Shown: positions 13,957-64,000 of the stretch, in pieces
How the letters are laid out: the number at the start of each line of letters is the position of its first letter
Numbering within the stretch: the stretch's first letter is position 1
Source of the DNA: a virus
Reading direction: 5' to 3' (one strand)
IMG/VR virus record: IMGVR_UViG_3300039008_000120
Span: 1 to 64,000 of that record
Length of the DNA stretch: 64,000 bases
Made by a program: the position numbers and the translations under genes
The notes under the pieces: generated by a model
Databases searched by the model: none
Told to the model about the DNA's origin: nothing
Seen by the model: only the letters and a program-made list of their open reading frames with translations

Positions 13957-13965
13957 AAATTTTAA

Positions 13966-36453: not shown

Positions 36454-36471
36454 AGTTAATTACCTCATTAT

Positions 36472-37092
36472 TTAAATTAACTGTAATGTTAATATTGGTT
36501 TATCTAATCCATCTTTTGAATCGATATAACATGAAATATTATCATTTTTATTAAACATTATATCTTTATCAAAACCGGTTGCATATTTAGCATTATCTAA
36601 ACTTATTGTTAAAATAACATTATTATTATTTTTTATTTCAACAACCCCAGTGTTGTGCTTGCTTGTTCTTAAAATCTACCGTTTTAGCGTTTTTTTACGC
36701 AAAACAGTATAACCATGTAAATTAGTTGGTATTCTAGTTAACTAATGCATATATCGTTTTTTTACGTGATTAGTATTAATATAAAAATGTATTTCACTTA
36801 TATCAACTACTGTACTATCTAGTGGTATACTTGCTTTTCCTAGTTTTTCCTAATTATTAATATCTTGGAAATTTTCATCAGTTAACCGATATAAACCATT
36901 ATTCGTTTCAATATCATTATAAACTGAAACAATCATACCACGATATGTATATACATACCCATCATTTGCTTCCCAGATACTTGTTTTACACAAATCTGAT
37001 TTATATTCAACTCGACTCCTAGCATCAAGTGGTGCTGATTTTTGAGGTTCGAAGTTAGCGGAAAAACTACTAGTTCCTTTTTCTCTTCCCAT
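36472..37092 (-). CDS. tail or baseplate-region hypothetical protein (206 aa, 3 in-frame TAG)
   Basis: ATG at 37092 with a GAGGT RBS. Track ORF 36850..37092 continues through TAG at 36850, 36742 and 36676 to TAA at 36472-74. Confidence 0.55.
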
Positions 37093-37113
37093 CTTACACT
37101 AACCTCTTTTTTA

Positions 37114-38004: not shown

Positions 38005-38069
38005 ATTTTAATTTACCAAAAAAATAAAATTATTGCTAAATTAATTCTAACTATCTATATTATAAAATA

Positions 38070-38117: not shown

Positions 38118-39305
38118 TCAATTAAAGATATATTTAATTGATTTAAAACCTTCTATGTGCGTAGGTAATATATATTGATCGAACATGTTATATATTATCT
38201 CCTTTTCTATTTTTTTACCCTTCACTTCGGATACTCTAAGCATATTCCTATTTACTAATTTATCCTTTTCTACTAATAACGCAACAGAGTGAACATTTGC
38301 ATTATTCGTTTTACCAATCCCAATTAGACTTTTTCTAGCCTTTCTGGTTAACGAAACATTTGCAATTGCTATATTATTATAGCCATTTTTATATAATTTT
38401 GTTACAAGTTGTTGTGTTTCTTGTAATAAATTAATATTTTTTTGTTCGCTACACCACGCAAAAGCTTTATGATATAGCTCATTATATGTTTCATTTATGT
38501 CGTTTTCATTATTATCCAGATAAAGGGAGACACGGATATCATCCCACGATACAACAATGTCTATTTTTTTAGAAAGATGATTTTTACAAACAAAATCTTT
38601 ACCAGAACCAGAACAACCACTAATTATATATAGGTTTCGTTTATATGATGGCTTATCATCAACTTTTTTAATATTATTAAAATCTAATTTTAAAAATTCT
38701 TTTAATAAATCAACATCATCTTTACCTGACCTACTTGAATTTGATCTAATTTGTCCCCTTGCATCAACTGATGCAAGTAATGTATATAATTTTATTAAAT
38801 CATGTCTATAATTTAATAATGCATATACTTTATTAATATCATTAACCTGATAATATAATGTATGTGATTGTATAATCAGCATCATACCAATAATATCTTC
38901 ATCTGATACACTAAATACAGACTTAATTATTTTATAATTATTTAACATAATTTGCATCGAACGATAATCATGTTGATTAAATGTTCTTTTTTTCTTTTCT
39001 ATATCATCTTGATAACAAGTTGGCTTACCAATATCATGAAATAATACAATGATACATAATAATACTATTTCATGTTCGTCTAATTTTACATTTTCTAATA
39101 CACTTTTTATATGTGAATATGACATACATGTATGTGTCCACACGTTCCCCTCTAAGTGATATTGATGGGGAATATATGAAAAACCATGTTCACAATTTAA
39201 CATTTCAAAAACGTAATCATTAAAATTGTGAATAAATTTTTCAAATGTATCAGATATTATATAATCAATATTATTTTCCATTTCCGATTTCCAATACTTT
39301 TTCAA
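38118..39305 (-). CDS. HD-domain phosphohydrolase fused to a P-loop kinase (putative RNA/tRNA end-repair enzyme)
   Basis: 395-aa track ORF (TTG start; an ATG alternative lies at 39281). H..GNVWTHT and LFHDIGKP in the N-terminal half, ISGCSGSGKDF Walker A in the C-terminal half. Confidence 0.55.
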   Translation of the reverse strand: MKKYWKSEMENNIDYIISDTFEKFIHNFNDYVFEMLNCEHGFSYIPHQYHLEGNVWTHTCMSYSHIKSVLENVKLDEHEIVLLCIIVLFHDIGKPTCYQDDIEKKKRTFNQHDYRSMQIMLNNYKIIKSVFSVSDEDIIGMMLIIQSHTLYYQVNDINKVYALLNYRHDLIKLYTLLASVDARGQIRSNSSRSGKDDVDLLKEFLKLDFNNIKKVDDKPSYKRNLYIISGCSGSGKDFVCKNHLSKKIDIVVSWDDIRVSLYLDNNENDINETYNELYHKAFAWCSEQKNINLLQETQQLVTKLYKNGYNNIAIANVSLTRKARKSLIGIGKTNNANVHSVALLVEKDKLVNRNMLRVSEVKGKKIEKEIIYNMFDQYILPTHIEGFKSIKYIFN

Positions 39306-39357
39306 ATGTTAGTGGTCTATATCCAATCACGTCACATCACACATTAAATTTCCGATT

Positions 39358-39385
39358 TTCATACGAAATCACATTTCGGTATGAA
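39358..39385 (-). terminator. hairpin after the 39410 gene end
   Basis: TTCATACGAAAT-CAC-ATTTCG(G)TATGAA, a 12-bp stem with one bulge. Confidence 0.45.
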
Positions 39386-39409
39386 AAATGAGTATCACTT
39401 ATGGTATAT

Positions 39410-41536
39410 TCAGTCATTCTTTTTTTCTCTTTGTCTAAAAGCATTATTTAAAATTTCGGGTAAAACATGTTCATTACCAGAATCATCTGTATATACATAT
39501 GACAATTTGGGGGACAGCTTTAATTCTTCACCATTATTATTATAAACAAACTCACCATTATTATTATATTTAAATTCTGAAATTTTATCTAATATTAATA
39601 ATTTAACATCATTATATGTTACCGGAGCTTTATTTTCTATTATATTCTTATCATTATTTACCACATCTGTAAATTTATTTTTTTGACAAAATACCTTTTC
39701 ATAGTGATTTTTAAATTTTATGAAATTAAATAATTTTTTACCGCTGAAATGACTACATTTATATTTAGAATAACTTATTTTTTTAGATACATTCGTGAAC
39801 TTAACTTGTTTATTTGATTTAAGATTACATAAATAATCACCAAAATTTAAAAGATTTGATTGGATTGTTTCAAACTCACCTCTTAATATTAATGTATACA
39901 GATCCTGTATAAAATATTTATATGCACCAATAACATCATCTTTATGTATGAGTGAACTCATTACTACATATAATATATATTGATTAACTATCGTTGATAC
40001 AATATCTTTCTTACCTTTAACCATAAAAATGCATGATGATAAATTAAATGGTTCATCTCGTCTAGTTACCATAGTAGCATTATTTGAACTAATTGACGGA
40101 TAAATAACGTCTAATATATTAACGTTCTGTAAACCTTTTTTACTAACATAAACAGATAGAAACTGATCAGGTTTACTTACATTTAATGAAATTTTTAAAT
40201 GTTTCAATAAACCTAAAAAATGTAGATATGAAAACACATTTTTTGACATATAATATGGTATTGGTGGTAAATAATAATGTTTACCATCAATTAAAATTGG
40301 TTTATTGGTAAATAATAATATGACCCCCTCACCATTTTGAATTGTATTATAATAAACCTTTCCACTTTTATTTAACAAATCTTCTGGTTTATTATAAAGA
40401 TTTTCCAGCATTTCATAATTTGATGGTAATTCTTTAACCCCAATATCAGATAATTTAATATGTTTTTTAATATTATCATTATATATTGACAAGAAATGAG
40501 CTTTTTTATCCAAATTATCTAAATTCACATTTTTATCTGATATATAATGTTCAATATATTTTAAATGATTATATGCCCCTATAAAATGTGCTTGTTTTTC
40601 CATAATAATATCATATGCATATGATATCGCTTTATCCAATTCACCCGATTCTATATCAACAGTTTTTAAATTTTCCACAGTATTATCTCCTTTTAATAAA
40701 ACTCTATTACTCATTATATCTCGAATTGGAAAAAATTTATTATTATGTTTAATTGTAATATACTCAAGCCAAATCCAAACATAATCACTATTTTTCCCAC
40801 TATACTGATTGTTTATTACAGTATCAGCTCCATTTATGTCTAAAACTAACAGTTCCCATTTTGATTCATCTGCAATATTATATAATTTTAATCCCATACT
40901 TTTAGGATCAATGGCACTTAATGCAGAAACTTTTGGTAATTTTTTACTATTTTCAAATTCACTTTTTAATTTTAATTCATCTTTTTTAACTTTCATGTAT
41001 AATAAACCCCTGTGATTTATTATATGTGGTAAATATGTAGTTAAAACTAATTTTTTATTGATATAAAACTCTGTTGGCTTATTTTTTAAATTATACCATT
41101 TTGTTACTATGTCACCACCATGTTTAACGTGTCTGTTTAGGTTATTATAATCAGACATCATATATGTAATATAATCACTACATTTGGGTGAGATAGTATA
41201 AAATTCTGAACTACCGCTCACATTATTCATTGTGATTGGTGGTTCGCATTTCTTTAGAAATGAAAAATGCTGTGGTAAATAATAATGAAATTGGTGTTCA
41301 AACACCGTTGCTTCTAGTATATTACTAAAAACAAAACTCGCATATGACTTTTTAATTACATAATTTTTATGCAACTCATCAATTTTATCAAATAAATTAA
41401 GGTTGTTTGAAACTATATCATTTATTAATTGTTCTCGTCTTTTTTCAGGAGACTGTCTAGTTAATCCAATTTTAAAAAAAGGTGGAATAAAAGGTACGTT
41501 CATTTCAAAACAATATATATTAGTTACAAGGTTCAT
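39410..41536 (-). CDS. large protein with an N-terminal T5orf172/GIY-YIG-like motif
   Basis: 708-aa track ORF with no TAG. FFKIGLTRQSPEKRREQL resembles the T5orf172 signature. The rest is unrecognised. Confidence 0.5.
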   Translation of the reverse strand: MNLVTNIYCFEMNVPFIPPFFKIGLTRQSPEKRREQLINDIVSNNLNLFDKIDELHKNYVIKKSYASFVFSNILEATVFEHQFHYYLPQHFSFLKKCEPPITMNNVSGSSEFYTISPKCSDYITYMMSDYNNLNRHVKHGGDIVTKWYNLKNKPTEFYINKKLVLTTYLPHIINHRGLLYMKVKKDELKLKSEFENSKKLPKVSALSAIDPKSMGLKLYNIADESKWELLVLDINGADTVINNQYSGKNSDYVWIWLEYITIKHNNKFFPIRDIMSNRVLLKGDNTVENLKTVDIESGELDKAISYAYDIIMEKQAHFIGAYNHLKYIEHYISDKNVNLDNLDKKAHFLSIYNDNIKKHIKLSDIGVKELPSNYEMLENLYNKPEDLLNKSGKVYYNTIQNGEGVILLFTNKPILIDGKHYYLPPIPYYMSKNVFSYLHFLGLLKHLKISLNVSKPDQFLSVYVSKKGLQNVNILDVIYPSISSNNATMVTRRDEPFNLSSCIFMVKGKKDIVSTIVNQYILYVVMSSLIHKDDVIGAYKYFIQDLYTLILRGEFETIQSNLLNFGDYLCNLKSNKQVKFTNVSKKISYSKYKCSHFSGKKLFNFIKFKNHYEKVFCQKNKFTDVVNNDKNIIENKAPVTYNDVKLLILDKISEFKYNNNGEFVYNNNGEELKLSPKLSYVYTDDSGNEHVLPEILNNAFRQREKKND

Positions 41537-41729
41537 TATTAACCTTTCCTTTTGTTTTATTTCTGGCTTTTATTTTTTCTTTATTTTCATGATAATATTG
41601 TTTATTTTTTTCTTTTAATCGCTCTTTATTTTTTTTATACCACTCTTGTTTACGTTTTTTTTCTGATGTTATATTATCTTTATAATATTTTTTATTATAT
41701 TCACTTTTTTCAACTGTAGTACCAACCAT
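41520..41729 (-). CDS. small Lys-rich basic protein
   Basis: Track ORF trimmed to the ATG at 41729 (AAGGTGA RBS). KKRKQEWYKKNKERLKEKNK... Confidence 0.5.
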   Translation of the reverse strand: MVGTTVEKSEYNKKYYKDNITSEKKRKQEWYKKNKERLKEKNKQYYHENKEKIKARNKTKGKVNNEPCN

Positions 41730-41764
41730 AACTATCACCTTTCATTAATTAAAAATACTACTAT

Positions 41765-41793
41765 AGTATACAATTAAACAAACAAACTGTCAA
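41765..41793 (-). promoter_or_regulatory. sigma70-like promoter (TTGACA-N17-TATACT)
   Basis: Minus-strand TTGACA at 41793..41788, 17-nt spacer, TATACT at 41770..41765. Confidence 0.6.
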
Positions 41794-41839
41794 TAAAATT
41801 TGACCAATATTTAATATTTTTAATTACAATAACAAAAAA

Positions 41840-41877
41840 AAATGGCACATAAATGATATATAAATTATGTGCCATTT
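41840..41877. terminator. 13-bp hairpin terminator
   Basis: AAATGGCACATAA pairs with TTATGTGCCATTT, after the 41905 gene end. Confidence 0.65.
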
Positions 41878-41904
41878 TTACTATATTATATAACTTATAA
41901 AAAA

Positions 41905-42699
41905 TTATTTTATAAAATCAGGTGGAGTATTACTATTAGTCAACATTTTAATATCTCCACTTTTAAATTTAGACAAGCCTAGTTGTGAAATCTTATTATT
42001 AAAAAACGCCTCAATTTCACCCTTTGCATGTACGGTTGTTTTATCAACCGCCTCATCGATACATCTGTGTAAAAATGGCAAGTCTGCTTCAAGTTTACGC
42101 TTAATATCTTCAAATATACGTAATATTTTATTTCGTTCCTTTTTATTTATTGCCCCATGCTTATTTAAAATATCATCAAGCTCAGATCCATATATACCGA
42201 GTTGCTGACTAAACTCCTTAAATACACTTTCTAAATCATCTGAAATTTTTTCACGGATATTATATTCTGGGCACATTGGCATTACCTCCCCTGCAAACTT
42301 TCTTAGTGTTACAGGAACCCCACATCCTAGATTTAATGAGGTTATTGCCTCACTGAATTGTGAATGTGACATATCAACTTCAATAAGTGGTGTTGTAGCA
42401 TCTTTATACCCCTCATCATACTCATTGAAATATTTAGTCGATTGACTAATCCTAAGTTTTATAAAGTTTTGATGCTTAATTGATGATCCATATAAATCAC
42501 ATTTACCACCTGTTACCCTTGAAAATGAAATTTGAGCATATGATGGATGTGTTTCATTAATATTATTAAGTGTATCAATTGATGTTTCAGTTGCAACGTG
42601 TCCATTAGATAACTCTCCAATATATTTTCCACAATTTGGACAATGTTTAAACTCTGGATATTTTTCTTTATTTATAATGCAATGTTTACATGATTTCAT
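41905..42699 (-). CDS. hypothetical protein with an N-terminal zinc ribbon
   Basis: Track ORF 41905..42756 trimmed to the ATG at 42699 with a strong GGAGG RBS. CKHC...CPNC. Confidence 0.55.
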   Translation of the reverse strand: MKSCKHCIINKEKYPEFKHCPNCGKYIGELSNGHVATETSIDTLNNINETHPSYAQISFSRVTGGKCDLYGSSIKHQNFIKLRISQSTKYFNEYDEGYKDATTPLIEVDMSHSQFSEAITSLNLGCGVPVTLRKFAGEVMPMCPEYNIREKISDDLESVFKEFSQQLGIYGSELDDILNKHGAINKKERNKILRIFEDIKRKLEADLPFLHRCIDEAVDKTTVHAKGEIEAFFNNKISQLGLSKFKSGDIKMLTNSNTPPDFIK

Positions 42700-42765
42700 A
42701 TATAACCTCCAGTTTATATTTTTTTTTGTAATATAGTCAAAATCAATTAAAAACAATATACTATA

Positions 42766-44058
42766 TTAAATATAATCTGTCAATGAAATTCTTTTATTAA
42801 ATTCTTCAACTCTCCAATTCAACACTCTATTTGAGATTTCAATACCATTTTTACCATTAAATAAATCAGATATATGATTTGGTACATTAAGCATATTTAC
42901 AATCTCAGCGTTTTTAATATGCTTTATTATTATACCATCAATACCACTTAAACCTTTACTAACTTTAATACTATTTACAACACTCAATACATCACTTAAC
43001 GTTTTTCTTTTTTGTAAGTGATGTATAATTTTTAAAATCTGCACTGGTTTCATTTTATAAATTTCATTGATAGTTAAATGAAATTTAATAGTATCTTCTA
43101 TAGTTTTCTTAATATTGTTGGGTAATTTTAGGCGTTTACTTATATATGGCACTAGAAATAGCCCTGTTCTATCATGATCACAATGATATGGTAGCTGTGA
43201 ATCATTAGTAAAAATTTTACCGATATCATGATATAATGCACCCCATAGTGCAGGAATTGAATCAGTTGACATTTTAGTTATATCAACTACATTCATCACA
43301 TGATCATATACATCAAGGTAATGAATGTGTGTCAACCCAACTAAGTGTGAAATAACAGGAAACCATATATCTAAATTTTCTGTTTCTTTTAAAACATTAA
43401 AAAATATACTAGGTGAATTAGACGATTTAAATGTTTTATCAACTTCAATATATATTCGTTCACCTGAAAGCCCCTCGGTTTGTACCGACAAGTCTTTCAT
43501 TAAATTTAATGTTTTTTTATCAACATCAAAATTAAAACGGGAAGCTAACCGTCCTGTTCGAAATATCCGTAATGGATCATCTGCATATGCATCACTAGTA
43601 TGACACAAAACTTTAGAACGAATAGACTCCATGCCTTTATATGGATCAATTATATTATTTAAATCACTAATTGGTATTGCCATAGAGTTAATTGTCAAAT
43701 CTCGACGCTTTAGATCGTCTTCAATTGTGATGTTTTTTCCATATACAACATCAAAATCAGTATGACCATTACCAGTTGACCGCTCTTGACGTGCAACTGC
43801 TAATTCTATTTTTTCAATACCACTTGATGATTCTATTTCTAATAAAAATACTGGAAATGATGACCCAATTAGTTTAAATCTTTCATTTAGTTTATGTAGT
43901 TGTGGTTCTGTTATTTTTTCAATACACAAATCAATATCATTTGATTTGATATTTAATAAATGATCTCTACATATCCCACCAACGAGATAAACTTGTGATA
44001 GCATATCTAAATCACTGAACAATGCAATAAGATTATCATATAAAATTTTATCTATCAT
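42766..44058 (-). CDS. cca: CCA-adding enzyme / poly(A) polymerase-family tRNA nucleotidyltransferase with an HD domain
   Basis: 430-aa track ORF. GGICRDHLL, DIDL, RRDLTINSMA and a C-terminal YHDIGK. Confidence 0.8.
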   Translation of the reverse strand: MIDKILYDNLIALFSDLDMLSQVYLVGGICRDHLLNIKSNDIDLCIEKITEPQLHKLNERFKLIGSSFPVFLLEIESSSGIEKIELAVARQERSTGNGHTDFDVVYGKNITIEDDLKRRDLTINSMAIPISDLNNIIDPYKGMESIRSKVLCHTSDAYADDPLRIFRTGRLASRFNFDVDKKTLNLMKDLSVQTEGLSGERIYIEVDKTFKSSNSPSIFFNVLKETENLDIWFPVISHLVGLTHIHYLDVYDHVMNVVDITKMSTDSIPALWGALYHDIGKIFTNDSQLPYHCDHDRTGLFLVPYISKRLKLPNNIKKTIEDTIKFHLTINEIYKMKPVQILKIIHHLQKRKTLSDVLSVVNSIKVSKGLSGIDGIIIKHIKNAEIVNMLNVPNHISDLFNGKNGIEISNRVLNWRVEEFNKRISLTDYI

Positions 44059-44086
44059 TATAGCTCCAACTATTAAGGTTTATTTG

Positions 44087-44115
44087 AATATATAATAAAT
44101 CTTAATAGTTGTCAA
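44087..44115 (-). promoter_or_regulatory. sigma70-like promoter (TTGACA-N17-TATATT)
   Basis: Minus-strand TTGACA at 44115..44110, 17-nt spacer, TATATT at 44092..44087, upstream of the cca-like gene. Confidence 0.55.
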
Positions 44116-44124
44116 TTAATAATT

Positions 44125-45900
44125 TTATATATCAAACAAATTAGTATCCTCATCATCTAAACCAATTTTTTCACGGAGATTAATGATTTTTGTATCTGGG
44201 TGATCAATTTTATATTGAGTCATATTACTAATAATATAATCACTCATATTACTAGTTAAAAAAATTTGTAAATTATATTTAACTGATATATTATATATAA
44301 TATTTAATATATTTAAAATATTCTCAGGATCAATGTTATCTAAAAGCTCATCAAGAATGAACGTTTTAAACTTTAGCTCTTGTGATAAATATGCAACATA
44401 TGCAATAATAAATGCTAAATCGACTATTTTACGCTCTGATGTGGACAGTGATTCATATATTACACTACCATTAAAAACTGGGTAGTTATTGAGATCAATT
44501 GTAACCGTATTATATTTACCATTAGTAAAATCATATAAAATTTTACTATATAGTTTAGTAAATCCTGATATTTTTTTTGTATAAAATTTATTAATATACT
44601 CACCTTTTTTATTTAAAAGCTTTGAATATATATTTTCAAGTATTACAAATTCACGTTCAAATTCTGATATTTCTTTTTGTGCAGAATCAATATTTTTTAT
44701 AATTTCCTCAATTATAGTTGTATTGTTATGATTCGTAATTTCACTCTGTTCTATTTTGTGTTTCAGTTGTGAAATTTGATTATTTAACATAATAATTTCA
44801 TTATTAATTTTTTGCTCAATATTATATATTTCATTTTGAAATTGATTTATATTATATAATGCCTTTTCAATTTCTTTAATTCCATTTTGCACAGCATCTA
44901 AATCGTTTTTTAATTTAATACCATCTTGAAATATTTGATTTAAATCATCCGAATATAATTCTTTGTTTATTTTTTGTGAACACGTTGGACATTTTCCAGC
45001 TTTTATAAGCTTATTATAATGCACGTGTTGTTGCCTTTTATGTGAAAGAGTCGCCTCAATTTTTGCCCGTTGTTCTTGTTGAACATTTAGACTTAGCTGA
45101 CGCTTTTCTTTATTTACATTTGCTTGTTTTTTTCTCCTAAGTTGACGATCACTTTCATCTTTTGTTATCCTTAATTTTTTTTCCAATTCGGATAATATTT
45201 TTATATTATCTTGTTTTTCCGTTTGATTGATATCAACCTCTTTTAATCTTTCTTTTGTTGAGTTTAATAAATTATGTTGATTATCAATGTGTGACTTTTT
45301 TATATTTAAGGTTGATTTTAAATCTTTGACTATACCATGAAAATCGGTGCGTAAATCACTAAAATATTGAACTTTAGTAATTGATGTTAATAAAGTACTA
45401 TTACTTTCAAACAAAGATCCAGAATATGGACTTTTTAGATATAAAATCGAAAACTTATTTTCATCCATTTCAAGTAAACTCTTTAAATATGTATTAAGTT
45501 TATCTACCTTACTTAAATTACACATATCTTCAAATATACCTGATTCGTCATTATTTGATGATATTTCAAACTTTCGATCAGATCCAGTTATATATCTTTT
45601 TATATCTAAATACATAGTTGGATTAGTTTTATTATTAATCGATAATTTTATATTAGCAAAAGATTCTCCACTAACATAAAATCGACTCAGTAGGTTTTGA
45701 ATTTTTTTAAATCGTAATGACCTACCAAAAAATGAATAATATAAACCTTCTGAGGTGAGCGTTGATTTACCGGTTGCATTACTACTCATAATAAAAATAA
45801 TTTTATATTTATCTAAATTAGATAATTCTATATCTTTAAACGACATAAAATTCTTGAGTCGAATATAATTTAATTTAACATATGAACCAATTTCTAACAT
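44125..45900 (-). CDS. Rad50/SbcC-like recombination ATPase (T4 gp46-like)
   Basis: 591-aa track ORF. Walker A SSNATGKST, central coiled coil with a CPTC zinc hook, signature LSTSERK, Walker B FILDELLD. Confidence 0.75.
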   Translation of the reverse strand: MLEIGSYVKLNYIRLKNFMSFKDIELSNLDKYKIIFIMSSNATGKSTLTSEGLYYSFFGRSLRFKKIQNLLSRFYVSGESFANIKLSINNKTNPTMYLDIKRYITGSDRKFEISSNNDESGIFEDMCNLSKVDKLNTYLKSLLEMDENKFSILYLKSPYSGSLFESNSTLLTSITKVQYFSDLRTDFHGIVKDLKSTLNIKKSHIDNQHNLLNSTKERLKEVDINQTEKQDNIKILSELEKKLRITKDESDRQLRRKKQANVNKEKRQLSLNVQQEQRAKIEATLSHKRQQHVHYNKLIKAGKCPTCSQKINKELYSDDLNQIFQDGIKLKNDLDAVQNGIKEIEKALYNINQFQNEIYNIEQKINNEIIMLNNQISQLKHKIEQSEITNHNNTTIIEEIIKNIDSAQKEISEFEREFVILENIYSKLLNKKGEYINKFYTKKISGFTKLYSKILYDFTNGKYNTVTIDLNNYPVFNGSVIYESLSTSERKIVDLAFIIAYVAYLSQELKFKTFILDELLDNIDPENILNILNIIYNISVKYNLQIFLTSNMSDYIISNMTQYKIDHPDTKIINLREKIGLDDEDTNLFDI

Positions 45901-45912
45901 ATATAATATTCC

Positions 45913-46191
45913 TTATTTTTTTGAAAAATATTTAATGTTAATAATCTTATTAAAAAATAATTCACTTTTTCTAAACCTTCCTATATCTACCAATTCATCA
46001 TATAATTCAATCAACTCACCTATACTACATTTAGTTGAATATGCATATATTCCCATATCGTTCTTAGTTGCATAATTTAATGCATAATATGATCGAACAC
46101 TGGGATCAAATTTTAAAATTATACAATCTGCATTTTCTTCATCCCACATATTAAATGTAGGATAAACGTTAGTAATATAACTATACCCCAT
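45913..46191 (-). CDS. hypothetical protein
   Basis: 92-aa track ORF. Confidence 0.55.
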   Translation of the reverse strand: MGYSYITNVYPTFNMWDEENADCIILKFDPSVRSYYALNYATKNDMGIYAYSTKCSIGELIELYDELVDIGRFRKSELFFNKIINIKYFSKK

Positions 46192-46211
46192 TATAAACCA
46201 CCACTAAATTA

Positions 46212-47498
46212 TTATATATTAATACAAATAAATTCTTCATTATTATTACTTTTAAATATTGACATCATCTCATTTATTTCATAATCCATTTCATCTCGTG
46301 ATATATATGGTATATCTTTAATTAAATCATTAAGCACCAAAGAATATTTATCAATTATATCATCATCATAAATATTCTTTATCTTTAAATAATCCTTTTT
46401 TTCTATATCAGATATATTTAATATAAATGATAAAAATACATTATCGGAACTATCTTTAATAAAAGATGCATCGTGGATATCAAAGTCAGAATTACTTAAA
46501 TCAACTGGTTTAATAACAGTGAAATCATCAGAAACACTATTTCTAGGATTTTCTGATACAATATGGATAACCGTATCAGATAGAGGAATATCAACATCTT
46601 TTTGACTTTTAAATAATGCTGATGCAACATTTGCATCCAAATTTGCAACAAGATGTTGTTGTAATGGTTTAATATCGTTTTCTCTAACAATGGTATTATT
46701 AATATCTATCCAAATATTCCATAATTTAATTTCAGTTTCATTTAATTGGATTGGATTCGGTAAATATATATTATCATTACCATCAGAATATAATGTTGAT
46801 ACAACACCGCTTAAACTATCTAGTTTATCATTCAGTAAATACATATTCAATATATTTACTGGATTTAAATATTTAAACATGTATTCATTTAAAAAATCTT
46901 GTGGATTATATGATTCTTTCTTTAATATATTTAATCGTAATATTTTTTCTATTTGTCCGTGGTTTTGAAATGAAGAAAGCATCCCTGTCATTGCATAATC
47001 TGAAATGTTGGCTTTATTGTTCATTAATGAATTTAATATTGATGAACACATTGAATCCGTTTGGGGTACACTGTTTATAGCTAACATCGTATCATCTAAT
47101 AATGATTTATAATCCGATATATTATCATTACTAAAAAAACCTTCTGATAATATTGGATTAAAAAAACCATCCATCATGGCAGACTCATCTTTTTTCGTTT
47201 TTATTTTAGGTGTTAACTTCTTTATAGTATGAACACCAACTTGACCATTTATAACGTGAATATCATCTAAATATTCACTTATTTTCTTATTTTTCCGATT
47301 ATCTATTATGTTTTTAAACTGCTCTGCTGGATTGTTATCAATATTGGTTTTTGCTTTATTTTTACCTTTTTTATTATTATATGGGTTTGAATAGTATCGT
47401 TGTTGAAAAAAGCTAACCTTTCCTGATTTTTTATTTACTCGCATAACATTTTTTCTAACAGTAGGCAACCCTTTTTTTGATGACCTGTTATTAACCAT
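46212..47498 (-). CDS. hypothetical protein
   Basis: 428-aa track ORF with no TAG and no recognised family. Confidence 0.6.
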   Translation of the reverse strand: MVNNRSSKKGLPTVRKNVMRVNKKSGKVSFFQQRYYSNPYNNKKGKNKAKTNIDNNPAEQFKNIIDNRKNKKISEYLDDIHVINGQVGVHTIKKLTPKIKTKKDESAMMDGFFNPILSEGFFSNDNISDYKSLLDDTMLAINSVPQTDSMCSSILNSLMNNKANISDYAMTGMLSSFQNHGQIEKILRLNILKKESYNPQDFLNEYMFKYLNPVNILNMYLLNDKLDSLSGVVSTLYSDGNDNIYLPNPIQLNETEIKLWNIWIDINNTIVRENDIKPLQQHLVANLDANVASALFKSQKDVDIPLSDTVIHIVSENPRNSVSDDFTVIKPVDLSNSDFDIHDASFIKDSSDNVFLSFILNISDIEKKDYLKIKNIYDDDIIDKYSLVLNDLIKDIPYISRDEMDYEINEMMSIFKSNNNEEFICINI

Positions 47499-50778: not shown

Positions 50779-52659
50779 TTACCATATTACATTTAACTTA
50801 AAATCATAAGAATATATACTATAATTATGACTTTTAGATACAAGATTAATTTTCCTCGATGAACGTTTACGTTTAAATTTATTTGAATCATGATTTTTAT
50901 TAGTTATATTTGTTAATACATTATTTCCTGATTCAAATAGAGATAGAATATCTTCATCTTCAACCGGTTCAATATTATTTTCTAAGTCTTCGTCGGTGAT
51001 ATCCTCTAATATATCAGACATTACATCATTCGGAAATAGTTTATTAAGAATAAATTCATCTTTAATGTTCATTCCCAACATTTGTTCTAACTGGGTAAAC
51101 ATTGTAACAAATTTTGACGACTTATCTAAATCTGTTTCTTTTCGTTCACTCATTGGAACAAATTCAGGTATATTAACATTTAAATATTTAATGTCTAAAT
51201 CTTTATAATTAACACCTAACTACTTTTCCATCTAAAACGTTAATATATTATTTAACATTACTTGATAATGGCGAATTTTCATTGAATAAACATTATCATG
51301 TAGTGCCAACATGCTATTATTCTGATATGTTTTGGCATTACTTGATTTTCTATAATGTAAAGGAATACCCATAGTATGATATACCTTATCCTACCAGTAA
51401 TCAATGTCATCCAGTAGTGGCTTGTATTCAGATTTTAATGTGTCTATTTTTAAATTTTCACCCTCAGTTGGAACAATCAAATTTGAATCTATGAGATTTT
51501 TTACAATATCAAAACTCATTTGATCTGTTGTTTCATCAAAATTCATTGCTGATTTCGATTTTACTAAATTTCGATATAACATAAGTGTGTTTGCAATGTC
51601 TTCATCTTCAATTTTTTCTAAATCCAATTTCCAAATGTGAGTTGTTTTAGATTTCGATAATCTCTCTATTAATAATGACAACTCTAACAGCTCGATAACT
51701 TTTAAATAATTTATAACTTTGTCAACTTGAGATTTTCCAATTACACCTTTTTCAGCAATGAAAAACATGTTCTCGGATTTTAATTCTGTACCATCTTCGA
51801 TTTTAAATATACTAATATTCTTATTGGTTATTTTTTTTAAATGATCATCTTCATCTATTGTTTTAAACATAGTGGTTGATGAATTACCTGATGATTCAAG
51901 TAAATCATTACTAATTTTTGTTGAATTTATTGTAGTGTTACCATTTGAAGTTTCCTTAAACACTACCTCATCAAGGCTATAAAAACTAACATCTGAATAT
52001 GTCTTAACGTCATCAAAATAAAAAATTCCACACCCATACCGCAAAATACTGTTTACTAAATTATACAATGAAAGTTTAATATTATTTCTCTTTAATAAAT
52101 TTCCAATCGCTAGTGATATTTCTTTGTGATGTGAATCAACTTTTTCAACGTTGTTGTTATAAATAAGCTGATCAACCTCTATATTTGGAACATTGATATC
52201 ATCGATAATATCAGTAGAATCGGATGTAGTACTATCGTTTATATATCTAGTATCTATTTTTTTCTCCAAAACTTTATACTCACCGAATAAATTAACCTCA
52301 ATCTTTCTTTTATTTGATGATGATGTATATATAATAGATGATGCTAACATATCTATTAAATATTCAATTTCTGGAAAACGATCTAAATATAAATTAACTC
52401 TATTAATTAATGATAATTTAGAATCAAAGCCACCATTAACTGTAACAATACCTAACCTATTAAATAAATCAGTGCTAACATTATTAATAAATTCATTCGA
52501 TTCATTTAACACATTATATGCACTACTTCGTGCAGTTGGTAACGACTTTGATATTAAATTATCAAGCTCCCCAGTTTTAACTAATTCTTTACCCTAAGAC
52601 ACCCCATTACTTTTTTTCTCAAAGTTAAGTGAATGTCGTTTTTTTGTAAAATTTATCAT
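50779..52659 (-). CDS. portal protein (626 aa, 4 in-frame TAG)
   Basis: One frame from the ATG at 52659 to the stop at 50779 joins track ORFs 51391..52512 and 50779..51153. TAG at 52594, 51391, 51232 and 51220. DMLASSIIYTS and DDIDYW*DKVYHTMGIPLHYR resemble T4 gp20 segments as I recall them. Acidic C-terminal tail. Confidence 0.7.
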
Positions 52660-52700
52660 TTTTTTTTGACCTTATCGTTAAAAACTCATATTTTATTCAA

Positions 52701-54322: not shown

Positions 54323-55318
54323 TTACTTTAATAGCCTATATTTACATATTGATGAATATTGACAATATGTACAATTATAACTCAGGTTAGTTTTTTTACA
54401 TTCATCCTTATTAACAAAATTAAATTTATCATTATATTTATTTTTTATCATATCAATATTAATATCATTTTTATCTACTTTATGTAATGGTAATATTATA
54501 TTATTAATATCATCAAACATTTCATCAATAAACTTTGAAAAATCCGCAGAATTCAATAAAACATTTGTATTGTCACCATCACGCAATTTAAAAATAATAC
54601 CTTTTTTTATTGCAGATGATGTTAACACTTCTTTTAAAAACTGAATAATTGATGTTTTATCCGGGTTATCAATTATATTTTTATTTGTATTGAAATTATA
54701 TTGAATAATATTATAACAATAAAAATATAATTGATGTATTGCAAAAATATCAATAGTCTTACCAGTTTTAAAATCGGCAAGATATAAATATTTACAGATT
54801 TCATTCTCCATTTTCCAAAAAATTAAGTCAATTGAACCATATAATAATAATGAATCTTCATTATTTAATTTTACAATATTATTAAATGTAAACTCTGATT
54901 CAATATTGTTGTCTTCAATTTTATAAGCAATATCACTAATATATTGCTTAAATAATTTAAAAGCATGGAAAAATACAACTTCATTATTTTTTATAAACTC
55001 TATCAATTCAGTTGTATTTTTAGTTCTATCCATACTTTTAACCATATATGAACCACTATTGAAATCTTTAGCTAAAAAATTTAATGTAATATGTTCATGT
55101 AAAATATCAAGATTATCTTTGATATTTTTTATTTCATATATTTCCCATCTATTTTTATGATATAGTTCTATAAATAAATGAGTTAAAACCCCTAATACTA
55201 AAGGATATGATTGTGGCATATCGGGTACTGGGGGTTTTAGTATATACGAATAAATGTATTTAAGTATACATTTTTTACTAACACTATATTTTGAAAACGA
55301 TAATAATAAATCCATCAT
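54323..55318 (-). CDS. Cas4/RecB-like PD-(D/E)XK exonuclease with a C-terminal Cys cluster
   Basis: 331-aa track ORF. N-terminal SFSKYS..KKC, GSIDLIF ... LADFKTGK, C-terminal C-x8-C-x2-C-x5-C. Confidence 0.6.
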   Translation of the reverse strand: MMDLLLSFSKYSVSKKCILKYIYSYILKPPVPDMPQSYPLVLGVLTHLFIELYHKNRWEIYEIKNIKDNLDILHEHITLNFLAKDFNSGSYMVKSMDRTKNTTELIEFIKNNEVVFFHAFKLFKQYISDIAYKIEDNNIESEFTFNNIVKLNNEDSLLLYGSIDLIFWKMENEICKYLYLADFKTGKTIDIFAIHQLYFYCYNIIQYNFNTNKNIIDNPDKTSIIQFLKEVLTSSAIKKGIIFKLRDGDNTNVLLNSADFSKFIDEMFDDINNIILPLHKVDKNDINIDMIKNKYNDKFNFVNKDECKKTNLSYNCTYCQYSSICKYRLLK

Positions 55319-55945: not shown

Positions 55946-56236
55946 TTATAATAAAAATTGTTTTTCATAGTCGCTAATATTTTCATATATATCACCTTCT
56001 AATTTCATTAACATTTTTATATCTAAATAATTAACATTTTCAACATCTTTAAAGGTTCCAATTACCTTATATGAACCTTTTTGTGGTGCTGATAAAACAA
56101 TTGACATATTTAATGTCTTTAATGTTGTTATATTTTTAGGCATTTTAATACCAGATGGTACATTAAATGCTTTTATTATTGGCATACGTTTTTTATTTCC
56201 ATTATTTTGAAAAAAAATTACAACTCTTTTATTCAT
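55946..56236 (-). CDS. hypothetical protein
   Basis: 96-aa track ORF. Confidence 0.5.
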   Translation of the reverse strand: MNKRVVIFFQNNGNKKRMPIIKAFNVPSGIKMPKNITTLKTLNMSIVLSAPQKGSYKVIGTFKDVENVNYLDIKMLMKLEGDIYENISDYEKQFLL

Positions 56237-56483
56237 CTGTTTTTACCTTAATATTAGATGTTACATCTTCTGATAATATAATATCTTTATTATCACTCAC
56301 TTTACATTCACATCCATTATTTAAATAATAATAACTATCACAGTTACTACATTTAAACAGTGTAACAATACTCCCATCTCCTTGTGAAAATATTGTTTTA
56401 CAATTATGACATACAACTACTTCAATATTATTATTTACTTCAATTTCTAACATTTTTTTACAATTGGGACACCTATCATTCAT
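56229..56483 (-). CDS. double zinc-ribbon protein
   Basis: 84-aa track ORF. CPNC..CHNC..CSNC..C.C. Confidence 0.5.
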   Translation of the reverse strand: MNDRCPNCKKMLEIEVNNNIEVVVCHNCKTIFSQGDGSIVTLFKCSNCDSYYYLNNGCECKVSDNKDIILSEDVTSNIKVKTDE

Positions 56484-57106
56484 ACTTTATCATATCCATT
56501 TTTAATATATTCTGATATTCGGTTTATATCTATATCATTTTTAACAATACTAAAATCAAAGTTTTTTGGTGGTTCTATATCTATAGATTTAAATAAATAT
56601 TCTAAACTAACTTTAGGATGTCTACAAATATCACCAATATTTAATACTACAAAATCATAATATTTTCCATTGTTAATTTTAGATAATGAACTAAAAATAT
56701 CAATATATGCTGTTTTAATTCTGTTCGTTGGATTTGATAAAAACGTGTTAACAGGATTGTTTTTAATATGTAAATTTTTTATTGTACTTACAATTTGACT
56801 AGGCCAAAATCTAGTAGTTATTATTGTATATACTTTATCAAAACCTGAAAATATTAATCTATTATACCAATCATCTAATCTAGGTAGATTGCTACCATGT
56901 GGGTAGCTTTGTCTGACTAAAAGCTTATCTATTTTTTCAGCAATAACCCAAGATCTAAATCCATTATCATCATACATAACATTTTGGAACTCTTGTGTAT
57001 GCTTATCGGTACCACGGATTTGTTTATCCGCTGATAATATAAATTTACTAACGGCTCGACAACCAGTACTTTCACCAGTACCATATACTAAGTATGCAGA
57101 TTTCAT
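56480..57106 (-). CDS. putative sulfotransferase-like protein (weak call)
   Basis: 208-aa track ORF, ATGA-coupled to the APS kinase gene. The N-terminal YGTGESTGCRA loop and TRFWPSQIVS segment loosely resemble the 5'-PSB and 3'-PB motifs. Confidence 0.3.
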   Translation of the reverse strand: MKSAYLVYGTGESTGCRAVSKFILSADKQIRGTDKHTQEFQNVMYDDNGFRSWVIAEKIDKLLVRQSYPHGSNLPRLDDWYNRLIFSGFDKVYTIITTRFWPSQIVSTIKNLHIKNNPVNTFLSNPTNRIKTAYIDIFSSLSKINNGKYYDFVVLNIGDICRHPKVSLEYLFKSIDIEPPKNFDFSIVKNDIDINRISEYIKNGYDKV

Positions 57107-57642
57107 ATGATAAACCCTTTTTTATAATCAATAACACGATCTAAGCATAATTTTAAAACTATATATTGTAAACATGAATATATATCATGTAAACCTGTAT
57201 CAACTGTCAAATTTGGGTTAATTGGTTTTTCATATGGATCATTAACACCACTTTGATTAGTTGGATTTTTATATAACCCTTTTGTATCTCTTTGTCTTAA
57301 AATAGAAATATCACAGTGACAATAAATTTCATAAAAAATATTCCCACTTTTTTCAATTAATTTTCGATTATTTAATCTGGTTTCATTATATGGTGCAATA
57401 GATGCAATAATGGTATTAATATTATGTTTATTAAGATAGTTTCCAAGTATACCAAGAGAAGATACGTTGATATCTCGGTCTTTCTTACTAAAGCCAAGGT
57501 TTTTATTATATAGCTGACGATATGTATTACCATCAATTAATTCAATAACTGAATCTTTTTTTAAATAATTATATAACTCTCTTGATAAAGTTGTCTTACC
57601 GGAATCAGTTAAACCGGTAAACTAAATTGTATAGTTTTTCAT
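57103..57642 (-). CDS. cysC: adenylyl-sulfate (APS) kinase (179 aa, 1 in-frame TAG)
   Basis: ATG at 57642 (AAGGGTG RBS) to TGA at 57103-05; absent from the track because of TAG at 57622-24. TI*FTGLTDSGKTT, LIDGNTYRQ..LGFSKKDR, IASIAPY, RDTKGLYK and NDPYEKP follow CysC motif order. Confidence 0.8.
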
Positions 57643-57762: not shown

Positions 57763-58521
57763 ATGGCTATTAGATTTGGATCAGATTCAGGATTCCAGAC
57801 TCGAACCGACTATCGAGTCAGTGAGTCCGAGCTTGATTGTGGAACAGTTGTACATCTATTCATCAGAAATATAGAGAAATCATATTCATTTACCGATGAA
57901 ATTTCTCTTTGTAATATAGGAGTTATTGGTTCATCAAATGATGAAGTTGATTAGTGTTTTGAAAATACTTCAATGAGAATTTCTGAAGAAGCCAGTCCAA
58001 AATATAAACCAACTGATGAAGCTCTTGGTGTTACAGCGGAAGAACTTGCACAACTTGCACAAAAAGGTATTGCATCAACAAAACTTGCATGTGTACCTCT
58101 TAAAATTAAATCAGTTACCGTTGAAGTTTCCGCTAGTTACAGGGAAATGGATCGTGACCCATCGGTTGAAGATATTTTACAATCAACAACATCCGATGGA
58201 CTGGTTACACTTGGTGAATTTTTTACATTACCAGATAATGGAACATACATTTTAACAAGTAAAAGCACAGATTCACCCATGGATAATTTCGGAACTAGAA
58301 GTATTACATATCGTAAAAAAATTGCATATCCAACTACACAGGCAAGGGATGTCTACCTAGGTGGAGTTGAACAATACTTTAGTGGTTCCGGTGGTGGTGA
58401 TTCCTTTAATAAGGACGAATCAACCGTTGAAAGAGAGGCACAGTTGAGACAAGGTGAGGTTCCAAGTCAAACCGTTTCCGTTACACGTTATGGTGTACCA
58501 GATGTAACATCAGCATTGTAA
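57763..58521 (+). CDS. hypothetical protein in a GC-richer, opposite-strand unit (252 aa, 1 in-frame TAG)
   Basis: Track ORFs 57763..57954 and 57973..58521 share a frame and are joined by TAG at 57952-54. Visibly higher GC and different codon choice than the neighbours. Has its own terminator. Confidence 0.55.
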
Positions 58522-58532
58522 TAAAAATAATT

Positions 58533-58558
58533 AAGGGGGACACATTAACGTCCCCCTT
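58533..58558. terminator. strong GC hairpin shared by convergent genes
   Basis: AAGGGGGA pairs with TCCCCCTT around a 10-nt loop. Confidence 0.75.
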
Positions 58559-59258
58559 ATATTTTCGAAAATAAATACTTTTTATTTTTAAAAATAAACA
58601 TCAATAAATAATCTTTTTTAATCATATAATCAGCGTCATCAAAATCATATGTATTATAAAAACAATCCAACAACGTACTATCAAACTCTAATATATTTTG
58701 ATTTAATAATTTAGGTGTTTTAATCTCAAACTTTAATGCAATATCTGATAAAATATTCCATTTAAAAATTTCATTTTTTGTGCATATATTATTTAAATAT
58801 ATATTATTATCTATATCATTATAAATAATTTCAATCGTTGATTCTTTATAAGAATCCATCAGATATTTTAAACGAAGATCTTTTTTAAGTTTATTTGTTA
58901 GTTTTATATTATTCTAACTCCCAAATTCTCTTGCGAAATAATATCGACCTGAACATCCATATTTACTTAAATAATATGTTTCTCCATAAATTTTTGGTTT
59001 AATATAATATTCTGTCCGTATTGGTAATTTATCTATTTCTATTTCATGGTATTGACCCACATATTTTAAATTAGGTCTACTTTTTGTAGTAATATTGTAT
59101 GTCTTAATTGATTGTAAATTTCCATTGGTATTGTATACAAATGATCCTTGTAGTTTTGTATGTGTAATATCACCAAGGGCAGTGGGATAATCAATAATAC
59201 AATTATCCCACTGCCCTCTATTTTTTTTACAAAAATCACTTACATACACATTTTTCAT
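58557..59258 (-). CDS. hypothetical protein (233 aa, 1 in-frame TAG)
   Basis: Track ORFs 58914..59258 and 58557..58859 share a frame and are joined through TAG at 58914-16. Confidence 0.5.
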
Positions 59259-60938: not shown

Positions 60939-61709
60939 TTAAAACGAATCAACTATTTCATCGATTAGTTTTAGTTCTAATGCATCTTTAGCCATAATAT
61001 ATGATTCACCTTTCATAAAGGTGTCAATTGCTTCTTTTTTTGCACCAGTATTGTCTTTTAAAATTTGACTTAGGGTTTCTTGTAGTTGTGTCTAAAATTT
61101 AGCATAGTCCATGAGTTGGCTATATTTACCATGGGCACCGGCAGAAATAGAATGGATCATTAAAACTGAATTTTTTGTTGCTTTTTTGACTGCACCAGCG
61201 GAGCTTATTATAATTCCCATACTAGCGGCGATTCCAGAAACAATAGTAGTTACAGGATATTTATTCGACTTAATAGCATCATGAAAACGGAGACCTTCAA
61301 TAACACTACCACCGTTACTATTTATGATCACAGTTGGTGTTAGTGTCCCTTTTAATGATGGATAATCGTGTTCCATCGCATTGATGTTTTTGTTTATTCT
61401 TTTTAATTGATCAAGTGCCCGATTAATTGTATATTTTTCTACATAACCATCAAAAAATAATGTTGTGGCATTCAGCATTCGAACATCACCATAATCCATC
61501 TAATAATAATTTTCAGGTTGATCATCATCGGTATTTATGCTTTCACTACGGTCACTAAAATCAACATCATCTGGTGTTAATTTTGTGGATTCATTAAGTA
61601 ATTGATCAGTTGGAAAAAAAGGACTTTTATTTAATAAACCTTCTTCAACACTGGGCATTTTATTAACTTTTGTTTTATTATCAACAGCATTTTTATTTTT
61701 TTTTGACAT
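60939..61709 (-). CDS. ClpP-family (S14) serine protease (256 aa, 2 in-frame TAG)
   Basis: ATG at 61709 (AAGGT RBS). TAG at 61500 and 61092 join track ORFs 61500..61766 and 61092..61499 plus a 51-codon tail. INSNGGSV, GIAASMG (Ser) and LMIHSIS (His) motifs. Confidence 0.65.
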
Positions 61710-61722: not shown

Positions 61723-62775
61723 TTATCGTTGTAAATATTTAAATAAATTTTCACTATCACTTTCACCCATTAAGCCATATTGCTTAATGAATTGCTGTAT
61801 TGAATTAATTTGAATTTTATTATCTTTAGGATAAATAATATCATCAAAAATCTTATTTAATTTAACTTTATCTAATTCACTAATAATATCATCGTTGAAA
61901 ATATTACAAATATATAAGTTTCTCCTGAACTCTTTTTCAAATTTACTCAATATTTGGGGTGTTTTAAATTTCTTAGAAAAATATTGTAATATTGAATCAT
62001 ATGTAACATCAATATCATCCAAATAACAATCTCTAAAAAAATTTTCAAAAATAGTCTTCGATTTTATACCAAATGGCTTTTTAATGTTATCTGAACTATC
62101 ACCCATTAATGCTTTATATAAAATAAATTCCGATATATTTTTTAAATACGGAAAATCTATTATATCACATATACAATCAATATTTTTTATTAAAAAATTT
62201 TTTGAACCTTTATTGGGTGCAGTATATTTATAAATTACATCAGTATTGTTTTCATCAAACGCCATTAGATAATCTTTATCATGACTAATCACTAAACTTT
62301 TTTGTTTAATATTATTATCTTTTAATTTTTTAAGAAAATATCCAATTACAAAATCTGCTTCATTTGTTACCAGATTTGATGGAACAACAACTTCATTGAG
62401 TAAACCAAATATTTCGGTTAACAATAAGCAATTATAATCATATAAGTTTTTTGTATTCCAATCAAATACTCCTTTGGTTCGTTTTGATTTACTTCGATTT
62501 AGTTTATATTCTGGATATATTTTTTTTATGTTAATAGATATTCCACCATCAAATGTAAATATAAACTTACTTTGTGGTAAAACTTGTTTCAAGTTAATAT
62601 AAAATTTTATAGTTTCAATGAATGGAGTTATATTTATTCGATCCATTGATAAATTTTTTTCTAAATTCAAATAGGGAGTAATTGTCAATGAACTAACATC
62701 AACAAAAACATAATTGTATTTATTATACAAAGCTTTTTTATTATTAATAAAATTCAAAATTTCACAATTACTCAT
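61723..62775 (-). CDS. FEN / 5'-3' exonuclease (T4 RNase H-like)
   Basis: 350-aa track ORF. VFVDVSS, YPEYKLNR, NEADFVIGY, SHDKDY and GDSSDNIK motifs. Confidence 0.7.
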   Translation of the reverse strand: MSNCEILNFINNKKALYNKYNYVFVDVSSLTITPYLNLEKNLSMDRINITPFIETIKFYINLKQVLPQSKFIFTFDGGISINIKKIYPEYKLNRSKSKRTKGVFDWNTKNLYDYNCLLLTEIFGLLNEVVVPSNLVTNEADFVIGYFLKKLKDNNIKQKSLVISHDKDYLMAFDENNTDVIYKYTAPNKGSKNFLIKNIDCICDIIDFPYLKNISEFILYKALMGDSSDNIKKPFGIKSKTIFENFFRDCYLDDIDVTYDSILQYFSKKFKTPQILSKFEKEFRRNLYICNIFNDDIISELDKVKLNKIFDDIIYPKDNKIQINSIQQFIKQYGLMGESDSENLFKYLQR

Positions 62776-63486: not shown

Positions 63487-64000
63487 ATGAGTTCACAAAT
63501 TGATTGTTACTTTGGAATTAGACCAACTGGTAATAAGCTTCACTTAGGTCACTTAATGACACTTTTTGATATGTTTGATTTTATAGTAACAAACATAAAT
63601 CACGTTAATAATATATATATTCTTTTAGCTGAAATCCATGCTCAAATATCAAAAATTTCAATAGAAAAAATTAAGTTAAATTCTAAAGATTTACATATTC
63701 AAATTTTAGAAGTATTTAATATATTTTTGAGAATGAGAAATATATCTCCTGAAAAAATTAAATATTTAAATAATAAAATTAAATTTATATATCAGTCTGA
63801 TTTTGAAACTCATGTTAATATCACATATACATATTTACCACTTGTAAACACAAATAAAGTATTAAAAAATCCAATTTTCAAAAACAATAATAACAACAGT
63901 GTCGGCTTTTTAATTTATCCAATTTTACAAACGTTTGATATTATATTATACTCACCAAACAGCAAAGATACTGATCTTTATGTTTTTGTGGGTGGTGATC
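63487..64000 (+). CDS. trpS: tryptophanyl-tRNA synthetase-like class Ic aaRS, 3' end outside the window
   Basis: ATG at 63487 with a GGAG RBS, open to the window end. GIRPTGNKLHLGH (HIGH), ILLAEIHA, ISPEK, FIYQSDFETH, IFK, SVGFLIYPILQTFDIILY and VFVGGD align in order and spacing with bacterial TrpRS: G.QPSG..TIGN, CIVDQHA, IDPEK, F.QS.VPEH, QFK, AGL..YP.LMAADILLY and VPVGEDQ. Confidence 0.7.
   Translation, partial: MSSQIDCYFGIRPTGNKLHLGHLMTLFDMFDFIVTNINHVNNIYILLAEIHAQISKISIEKIKLNSKDLHIQILEVFNIFLRMRNISPEKIKYLNNKIKFIYQSDFETHVNITYTYLPLVNTNKVLKNPIFKNNNNNSVGFLIYPILQTFDIILYSPNSKDTDLYVFVGGD

Follow-up and report, generated by a model that had tools for sequence, protein, structure and literature searches.

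The locus described here raises the question of whether a phage can carry its own sulfation step, with a kinase that makes the sulfate donor 3'-phosphoadenosine 5'-phosphosulfate (PAPS) encoded next to a transferase that uses it. The DNA analysed, referred to below as the window, comprises positions 1 to 64,000 of the IMG/VR virus record IMGVR_UViG_3300039008_000120. A preliminary description had proposed a clear homologue of the adenosine 5'-phosphosulfate (APS) kinase CysC at positions 57103-57642, overlapping by an ATGA a 208-aa open reading frame (ORF208, 56480-57106), and had read the two as a PAPS-making kinase and a PAPS-using transferase. The overlap was confirmed at 57103-57106, both genes lying on the minus strand and the kinase stop codon (57103-57105) sharing bases with the ORF208 start codon (57104-57106). 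The functional reading was supported by the predicted fold of ORF208, by alignment with the tyrosylprotein sulfotransferase TPST1 and by the conservation of the pair in four lineages. The interpretation preferred here, to which a probability of roughly 0.6 was assigned, is that the two genes belong to an operon of a jumbo T4-like phage in which four genes are coupled by overlaps, that the products of these two carry out a self-contained sulfation step, and that the operon is read with TAG as Trp and with coupled, late translation. The locus is thus a likely PAPS-sulfation module, expressed late, in a clade of jumbo phages that reads TAG as Trp.

The kinase gene (179 codons) matched Pfam PF01583 with an E-value of 5.9e-34 (117.7 bits; cutoff 21.1) and the solved APS kinases of the PDB with an E-value of 2e-25, and its product was 40-56% identical to bacterial and phage CysC proteins. 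The family assignment of the preliminary description stood, but the frame is not open under the standard code, as a TAG at codon 7 (57622-57624, minus strand) had been overlooked. The gene is missing from the standard-code list of open reading frames because of this codon, and is intact only if the TAG is a sense codon. The translation begins with MKNYTI, the TAG and then FTGLTDSGKTT, which places the TAG directly before the Walker-A P-loop (G-x-x-G-x-G-K-[ST], here GLTDSGKTT), of which G10, G15, K16 and T18 were invariant in 58 sequences. Residues R42, F51, R56 and N59 are the retained equivalents of four APS-contact residues, which we take to be R92, F101, R106 and N109 in the numbering of human PAPSS1; the equivalent of a fifth, presumably F185, is Q130, and the lid is five residues shorter. 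The phage kinase resembles bacterial CysC (PF01583) in its fold, its P-loop, the equivalents of the APS-contact Arg, Phe and Asn residues and an identity of 40-50%, and differs in being phage-borne, in having DGN for DGD and NVSS for NVRR, in its shortened lid, and in having a TAG where the homologues have an invariant Trp.

The use of TAG was analysed over the whole window, which has a G+C content of ~26% and contains many long frames broken only by TAG. The 71 in-frame TAGs were concentrated in terminase, capsid-region, tail-fibre-like and portal-like genes, and TAG-bearing gene regions include 12103-14016, 16304-20555, 22714-24177, 35170-38007 and 50779-52671. Five of them are in the T4-type large terminase gene (TerL, 12103-14016) and six in each of two tail-fibre-like genes; the block 38118-47498 contains no TAG and 14 TGG. 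When TAG was treated as sense, 82 genes were obtained and 88% of the window was coding. TAG and TGG together made up 0.96% of codons, which is a normal Trp content (0.59% for TGG alone). It is highly improbable that codon 7 is a genuine stop, arising from pseudogenisation or sequencing error, or that its TAG means Gln as in genetic code 15. The latter agrees with public gene calls, which render TAG as Gln throughout the clade (proteins P0007, P0165, P0166 and P0192; loci L001, L010 and L011), and code 15 is the described phage amber reassignment (10.1101/2021.08.26.457843; PMC9523058). Against a stop stand the coding density of the window and the retention of the TAG, which is found at the same codon 7 in the L001 kinase orthologue (~50% identity) and in independent assemblies of this phage.

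Against Gln, and for Trp, stand the conserved columns and the codon pairings. The kinase column occupied by the TAG was Trp in 57/57 aligned homologues. In TerL, the TAG columns within 'LACALxFLTF' and 'RDQDxYDEQ' were Trp in 14/14 distant standard-code homologues, and members of the clade had W or 'Q'; in the DNA of three database proteins, every such 'Q' was a TAG translated under code 15, and database proteins of the clade hold Gln at conserved Trp sites. TAG was present in 19 of the 120 clade cells over 10 conserved-Trp TerL columns, compared with 0/84 over 7 conserved-Tyr columns. A codon-by-codon alignment of the window genes with seven related loci gave 13,292 codon pairs, in which TAG was paired with TGG (31), TAT (12) and TAC (4), never with CAA or CAG, and was the commonest partner of TGG. 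TAG accounted for 25% of the TGG pairings (31/124), compared with 1% for TAT, 0/475 for CAA and 0/154 for CAG, and the BLOSUM62 sums were 304 for W, 145 for Y and -100 for Q. Two tail-fibre-like paralogues (18855-20555, and 35170-36459 on the minus strand) share N- and C-terminal segments, and a TAG in one (SEREKxLGN) aligns with a TGG in the other (TRNKWLSS). A structural alignment with T4 gp17 placed H, I and I at three TAG columns, which is uninformative at 24% identity.

Gln was rejected as the meaning of TAG on the absence of any CAA or CAG pairing and on the occupation of invariant Trp columns. Tyr had been considered on account of TAT being the top partner in a first small sample and of an HLGH motif in the phage aminoacyl-tRNA synthetase; it was rejected on the lack of TAG in the conserved-Tyr columns of TerL, the lower TAT share and the best scoring of the synthetase as a tryptophanyl-tRNA synthetase (TrpRS). 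Genetically encoded sulfotyrosine at TAG, combining the transferase, the synthetase and the amber codon, is very unlikely, as TAG lies at invariant Trp sites such as the one before the kinase P-loop. The codon comparisons show that this phage clade reads TAG as Trp. Codon 7 of the kinase gene then encodes the invariant Trp that precedes the P-loop, and the frame is unbroken. Two further observations concern the distribution of TAG. Of two neighbouring paralogous genes on the minus strand (3026-3886 and 4414-5511) that share a 'YPD[KR]F...NLYF' segment, one is rich in TAG and the other has none. Two TAGs lie in the gene for a ClpP protease with a long N-terminal extension (60939-61709, minus strand).

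A candidate for the enzyme that would charge the decoding tRNA is encoded at the edge of the window, where the N-terminal part of a divergent phage TrpRS of the Thermotoga type lies at 63487-64000 on the plus strand and exits the window. The full sequence of 338 aa was obtained from L003 (2604-3620, minus strand). This class I synthetase scored best as a TrpRS (TIGR00233 trpS, E-value 2.5e-22, below the equivalog cutoff), its best PDB match was the Thermotoga maritima TrpRS 2g36 (E-value 1.8e-14, with the Cys motif aligned), its gene contains no TAG, and L005, a relative in IMG/VR, encodes an orthologue. In E. coli, amber suppressors derived from tRNA-Trp mostly receive Gln, which would explain the need for a dedicated TrpRS. 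Beyond the window, the TrpRS gene is followed by a Glyco_transf_9 gene.

No report of a TAG to Trp reassignment in a phage was found in the literature. Recoded phages are described with TAG to Gln (code 15) in crAss-like and Lak phages and TGA to Trp (code 4) in Jade and Agate phages (10.1101/2021.08.26.457843; PMC9523058), these two changes being the only ones in the main survey (10.1101/2021.08.26.457843), in which two TGA-recoded Jade phages have a phage TrpRS in the standard code. The window phage resembles them in having in-frame stops in structural and late genes, with other genes and the TrpRS compatible with the standard code, and differs in combining TAG as the codon with Trp as its meaning. 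UAG as Trp is described for Balanophora plastids in 10.64898/2026.01.09.698701 (citing Su et al. 2019) as exceptionally rare, in an extremely AT-rich genome and with a tRNA-Trp with a CUA anticodon; that case concerns a plastid that has lost release factor 1, whereas a virus must impose its code on a host during infection.

ORF208, the second gene of the pair, was identified only by a 77-sequence family profile and by structure comparison. It has only six close relatives (47-57% identity), and a profile search of 1.84 billion representatives recovered 321 relatives, mostly of 165-215 aa. Among 77 aligned relatives, 38 matched Pfam Sulfotransfer_3 (PF13469), 10 Sulfotransfer_1 (PF00685) and 8 Stf0 (PF09037), with a best E-value of 1.2e-6, and the family profile matched TPST1 with an E-value of 1.2e-5. 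The AlphaFold 2 (AF2) model built from this alignment had a predicted local distance difference test (pLDDT) score of 95.5 and a predicted template modelling score (pTM) of 0.92. In a Foldseek comparison with the PDB, ranks 1-33 were all sulfotransferases, namely TPST2/1, the sulfotransferase domains of CurM and OLS, heparan-sulfate 3-O-sulfotransferases (3-OSTs) and cytosolic SULTs. The top match was TPST2 (E-value 2.1e-5; template modelling (TM) score 0.56 normalised to the query), and the first protein of another kind, a UMP/CMP kinase, came at rank 34. The top matches had been the same for an earlier AF2 model (7 sequences, pLDDT 77.5), and nucleoside monophosphate (NMP) kinases were interspersed with them. 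A confident model with a fold other than that of sulfotransferases had been named beforehand as the outcome that would overturn the preliminary description, and the opposite was found.

Both motifs to which the preliminary description had drawn attention were confirmed, YGTGESTGCRA (residues 8-18) and R99-F-W-P-S-Q-I-V-S107, and their columns are invariant or near-invariant in the family, which also conserves G9-x-P-E12-S-S/T-G15-T-R17, H36-x-Q38, R65-R-S67-x-P69-H70, R99-D-W101, S107 and H113. The loose likeness to PAPS-binding motifs seen there held for the 3'-phosphate-binding (3'-PB) motif, which is canonical: R99 and S107, present in 70/70 and 67/70 distant members, aligned with the TPST1 motif RDGRASVHS, and a later Y-E-x-L...P segment aligned as well. 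It held only in part for the 5'-phosphosulfate-binding (5'-PSB) loop, which follows strand 1 as expected but has the sequence G-x-P-E-S-S/T-G-T-R, without the canonical Lys/Arg. The residue after Gly-Thr, R17, is R or K in 68/70 distant members. H36 and Q38, about 22 residues past the loop as is the base in TPST and the heparan-sulfate enzymes, are candidates for the catalytic base, as is H70. We therefore class ORF208 among the proteins of sulfotransferase fold, in a subfamily that has not been characterised, and PAPS-dependent transfer by it is inferred. No annotated member of the subfamily was present in any library searched, and all contexts of the family that were examined looked phage- or prophage-like.

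In comparison with TPST1/2, PF13469 proteins and heparan-sulfate 3-O-sulfotransferases, ORF208 has the same alpha/beta fold, the P-loop-like PSB loop after strand 1, the 3'-PB Arg-Ser spacing of 8 residues and the C-terminal Y-E-x-L...P segment. It differs in being ~70-90 residues shorter, in having Glu for Lys/Arg in the PSB loop and an Arg after Gly-Thr, and in the additional RRSxPH and HxQ motifs. Viruses with a sulfotransferase fold are not new. The best viral structural matches of ORF208, in BFVD, were annotated sulfotransferases of Synechococcus phage S-SCSM1 and of giant and marine viruses (E-values ~1e-4, TM ~0.5); these are larger and of other subfamilies, and no linked APS kinase was shown for them here.

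The kinase gene was found directly upstream of the transferase gene in four lineages (the window, L001, L002 and L016/L017), with a junction of a 4-nt overlap or a 1-nt spacer and with identities of 46-53% for the transferase and 51-58% for the kinase. The ORF208 orthologues contain two or three TAGs, whereas ORF208 of the window has none; in L016/L017 the gene caller had lost the transferase N-terminus to three TAGs. IMG/VR searches for related loci from single proteins (the kinase and TerL) gave no match, and a degenerate DNA pattern search for GPESSGTR matched only two contigs of metagenome-assembled genomes (MAGs). The pairing bears on the possibility that the kinase is an ordinary auxiliary gene that boosts the assimilatory sulfate reduction or cysteine supply of the host, with ORF208 unrelated and merely adjacent. 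Such a role would be in line with metagenome surveys that list cysC among viral auxiliary genes (PMC8306916, PMC12482060), but it was considered improbable: the overlapping adjacency has been kept over ~50% divergence in the four lineages, no cysH, cysD or cysN was found alongside, and the kinase belongs to the TAG-containing class of genes, most of which are structural. APS kinase genes are very rare in sequenced phages: a search of 50,697 GenBank phage records gave 5 matches, and PHROGs contain no family for the enzyme. A canonical CysC is encoded in the huge-phage record LR756500.1, where no obvious transferase was seen beside it.

Several observations weigh against the preferred interpretation. 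The transferase occurs without the kinase in the more distant L005, L006, L007, L012 and L013. L011 encodes a different, canonical CysC (19746-20255, minus strand; DGD, NVRR and FTG intact) beside a gp23-like capsid gene, and no transferase was found within the 22 kb fetched, which also fits the auxiliary role; the distinct CysC of L011 suggests that APS kinase was acquired repeatedly in the phage clade. The search for ATP sulfurylase suggested in the preliminary description was made in the window and its flanks, where neither this enzyme nor CysH nor CysQ was found, and motif scans for Sat, CysD, CysN, CysH and CysQ returned nothing. With no ATP sulfurylase there, APS is assumed to come from the host. 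A search of the 64-kb window and of the seven related loci recovered no tRNA; most of the genome, which is of at least 232 kb, lay outside this search. ORF208 has a clean frame with no in-frame TAG and an AAGGG ~10 nt upstream, so that its translation may not depend on that of the kinase.

The remaining points concern the chemistry of the two proteins. In the kinase, the DGD motif is altered to D37-G38-N39 and the NxRR segment to N59-V-S-S62 (D39 and R62 being invariant in 53 homologues), and F130Q and the 5-residue lid deletion fall at positions invariant or near-invariant in the same 53. The NCBIfam apsK score was 120 bits, under the equivalog cutoff of 138.7. On these substitutions, the shortened lid and the scores below the equivalog cutoffs, activity of the kinase on APS is not assured. 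R62S is common to the closest phage relatives of the kinase and D39N to P0193, and the substitutions are lineage traits rather than decay since they are partly common to those relatives. ORF208 alone had no match in Pfam (E<=1), NCBIfam, PHROG or PADLOC; neither PDB sequences searched with the 7-sequence profile nor GenBank phages searched by tblastn gave a match. The Foldseek TM-scores are only 0.5-0.57, and the PSB Lys/Arg position is Glu (E12) in 66/70 distant members, whereas to our knowledge all characterised sulfotransferases carry Lys or Arg there. The two proteins might thus have the right folds and another chemistry, the kinase acting on another nucleotide or metabolite and ORF208 being kinase-like, hydrolytic or ligand-binding. 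The kinase substitutions and scores, E12 and the NMP kinases among the weaker fold matches of ORF208 would all fit this alternative. It was nevertheless judged unlikely, although less so than the auxiliary role: the structural matches are all sulfotransferases down to rank 33, the PAP(S)-specific 3'-PB Arg and Ser align with TPST1, ORF208 has no Walker-A Lys, the kinase keeps four APS-contact residues, and a PAPS pathway predicts just such a conserved pairing of an APS-kinase homologue with a sulfotransferase fold.

If the sulfation module is real, its use during infection might proceed as follows. Early in infection the host would read TAG as stop, the kinase would end after six codons, and ORF208, the start of which lies on the stop codon of the kinase, would presumably be poorly made too. 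Expression of the phage TrpRS, from its TAG-free gene, and of a putative tRNA(CUA), encoded elsewhere in the genome, would then allow the kinase to be translated and to phosphorylate host-made APS to PAPS. Ribosomes finishing the kinase would restart on ORF208, a minimal sulfotransferase-fold enzyme that would move the sulfate from PAPS to an acceptor hydroxyl. The TAG at codon 7 would in this way hold the operon back until the code switch, and a kinase of its own would free the phage from dependence on host PAPS, which many bacteria with direct APS reduction do not produce. The best guess for the acceptor is a macromolecular component of the virion or the cell envelope, glycan or protein. This is favoured because the structurally closest enzymes have proteins, heparan sulfate or carrier-bound acyl chains as substrates, because ORF208 is a bare core without a cap forming a small-molecule pocket, and because distant homologues sit by glycan-type modification genes. 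The transferase gene directly follows an S-adenosylmethionine (SAM) methyltransferase gene in L007 and L013 (overlapping it in both) and in a Chloroflexota MAG contig, and L013 has glycosyltransferase and cytidylyltransferase genes nearby. The fuller scenario, in which UAG as Trp is imposed on a standard-code host by the TrpRS and a tRNA(CUA), the codon-7 TAG locks the operon and a macromolecule of the virion or envelope is sulfated late, was rated at slightly better than even odds.

Private PAPS supplies encoded beside the transferase that uses them are known from the rhizobial NodPQ-NodH and the Xanthomonas RaxPQ-RaxST systems, which include ATP sulfurylase and are cellular, not viral. The viral locus differs in having the kinase step only. 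We know of no established role for sulfation in phage biology, and the conserved pair of a self-supplied PAPS source and a transferase would offer a concrete, cloneable entry to what phages sulfate and why. With its unusual donor-binding loop, the ORF208 family stands as a minimal subfamily of sulfotransferases that has yet to be characterised. Taken by itself, the sulfation module is moderately interesting, and the more surprising result is the TAG = Trp code to which it led. If true, this code would be a third kind of phage stop-codon reassignment and would offer a natural UAG-decoding Trp pair. Gene calls under code 15 put Gln at conserved Trp sites of the terminase and the kinase, and degrade annotation and structure prediction for the clade.

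The overlapping chain continues downstream of ORF208, the stop codon of which forms a second ATGA overlap with the start of a gene for an 84-aa double zinc-ribbon protein (56229-56483, minus strand; weak Zn_ribbon matches). This gene in turn overlaps the last of the chain, encoding a protein of 96 aa (55946-56236, minus strand) that was taken from the list of open reading frames and had no family match in Pfam, PHROGs or PADLOC. A zinc-ribbon orthologue is found downstream of the transferase in L016/L017, where an orthologue of the 96-aa protein (43% identity) is also present, and a Cys-rich frame with CxxC pairs directly follows the transferase in L005. Divergent from the kinase operon lies a gene for a 252-aa protein (57763-58521, plus strand) with one in-frame TAG at 57952-57954 and a G+C content above that of its surroundings. 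The protein had no match in Pfam, PHROGs or the PDB. In each of the related loci (L001, L005, L006 and L016/17; 43-57% identity) its gene likewise lies upstream in divergent orientation, and because of this constant position the protein is a candidate partner or substrate. The 252-aa gene and a converging minus-strand gene are both closed by a GC-rich hairpin at 58532-58559, a bidirectional terminator with a stem of 10-12 bp, 6 GC pairs and T-runs on both strands. A promoter scan of the locus, in DNA of 24% G+C, gave nothing informative.

Other genes of the window were recorded in passing. A methyl-accepting chemotaxis protein of 652 aa (31460-33418, minus strand; dCache_1, HAMP and MCPsignal domains) is unusual phage cargo, and a chemotaxis protein in a phage would imply a motile host. 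The minus strand also encodes an RNase T-like exonuclease (33606-34160), a CCA-adding enzyme (42766-44058; PolyA_pol and HD domains), a PD-(D/E)XK nuclease (54323-55318) and a 5'-3' exonuclease (61723-62775). Three consecutive paralogues on the plus strand (9045-10692) share the N-terminus 'RYGE...W[VE][YE]G[SL]Y'.

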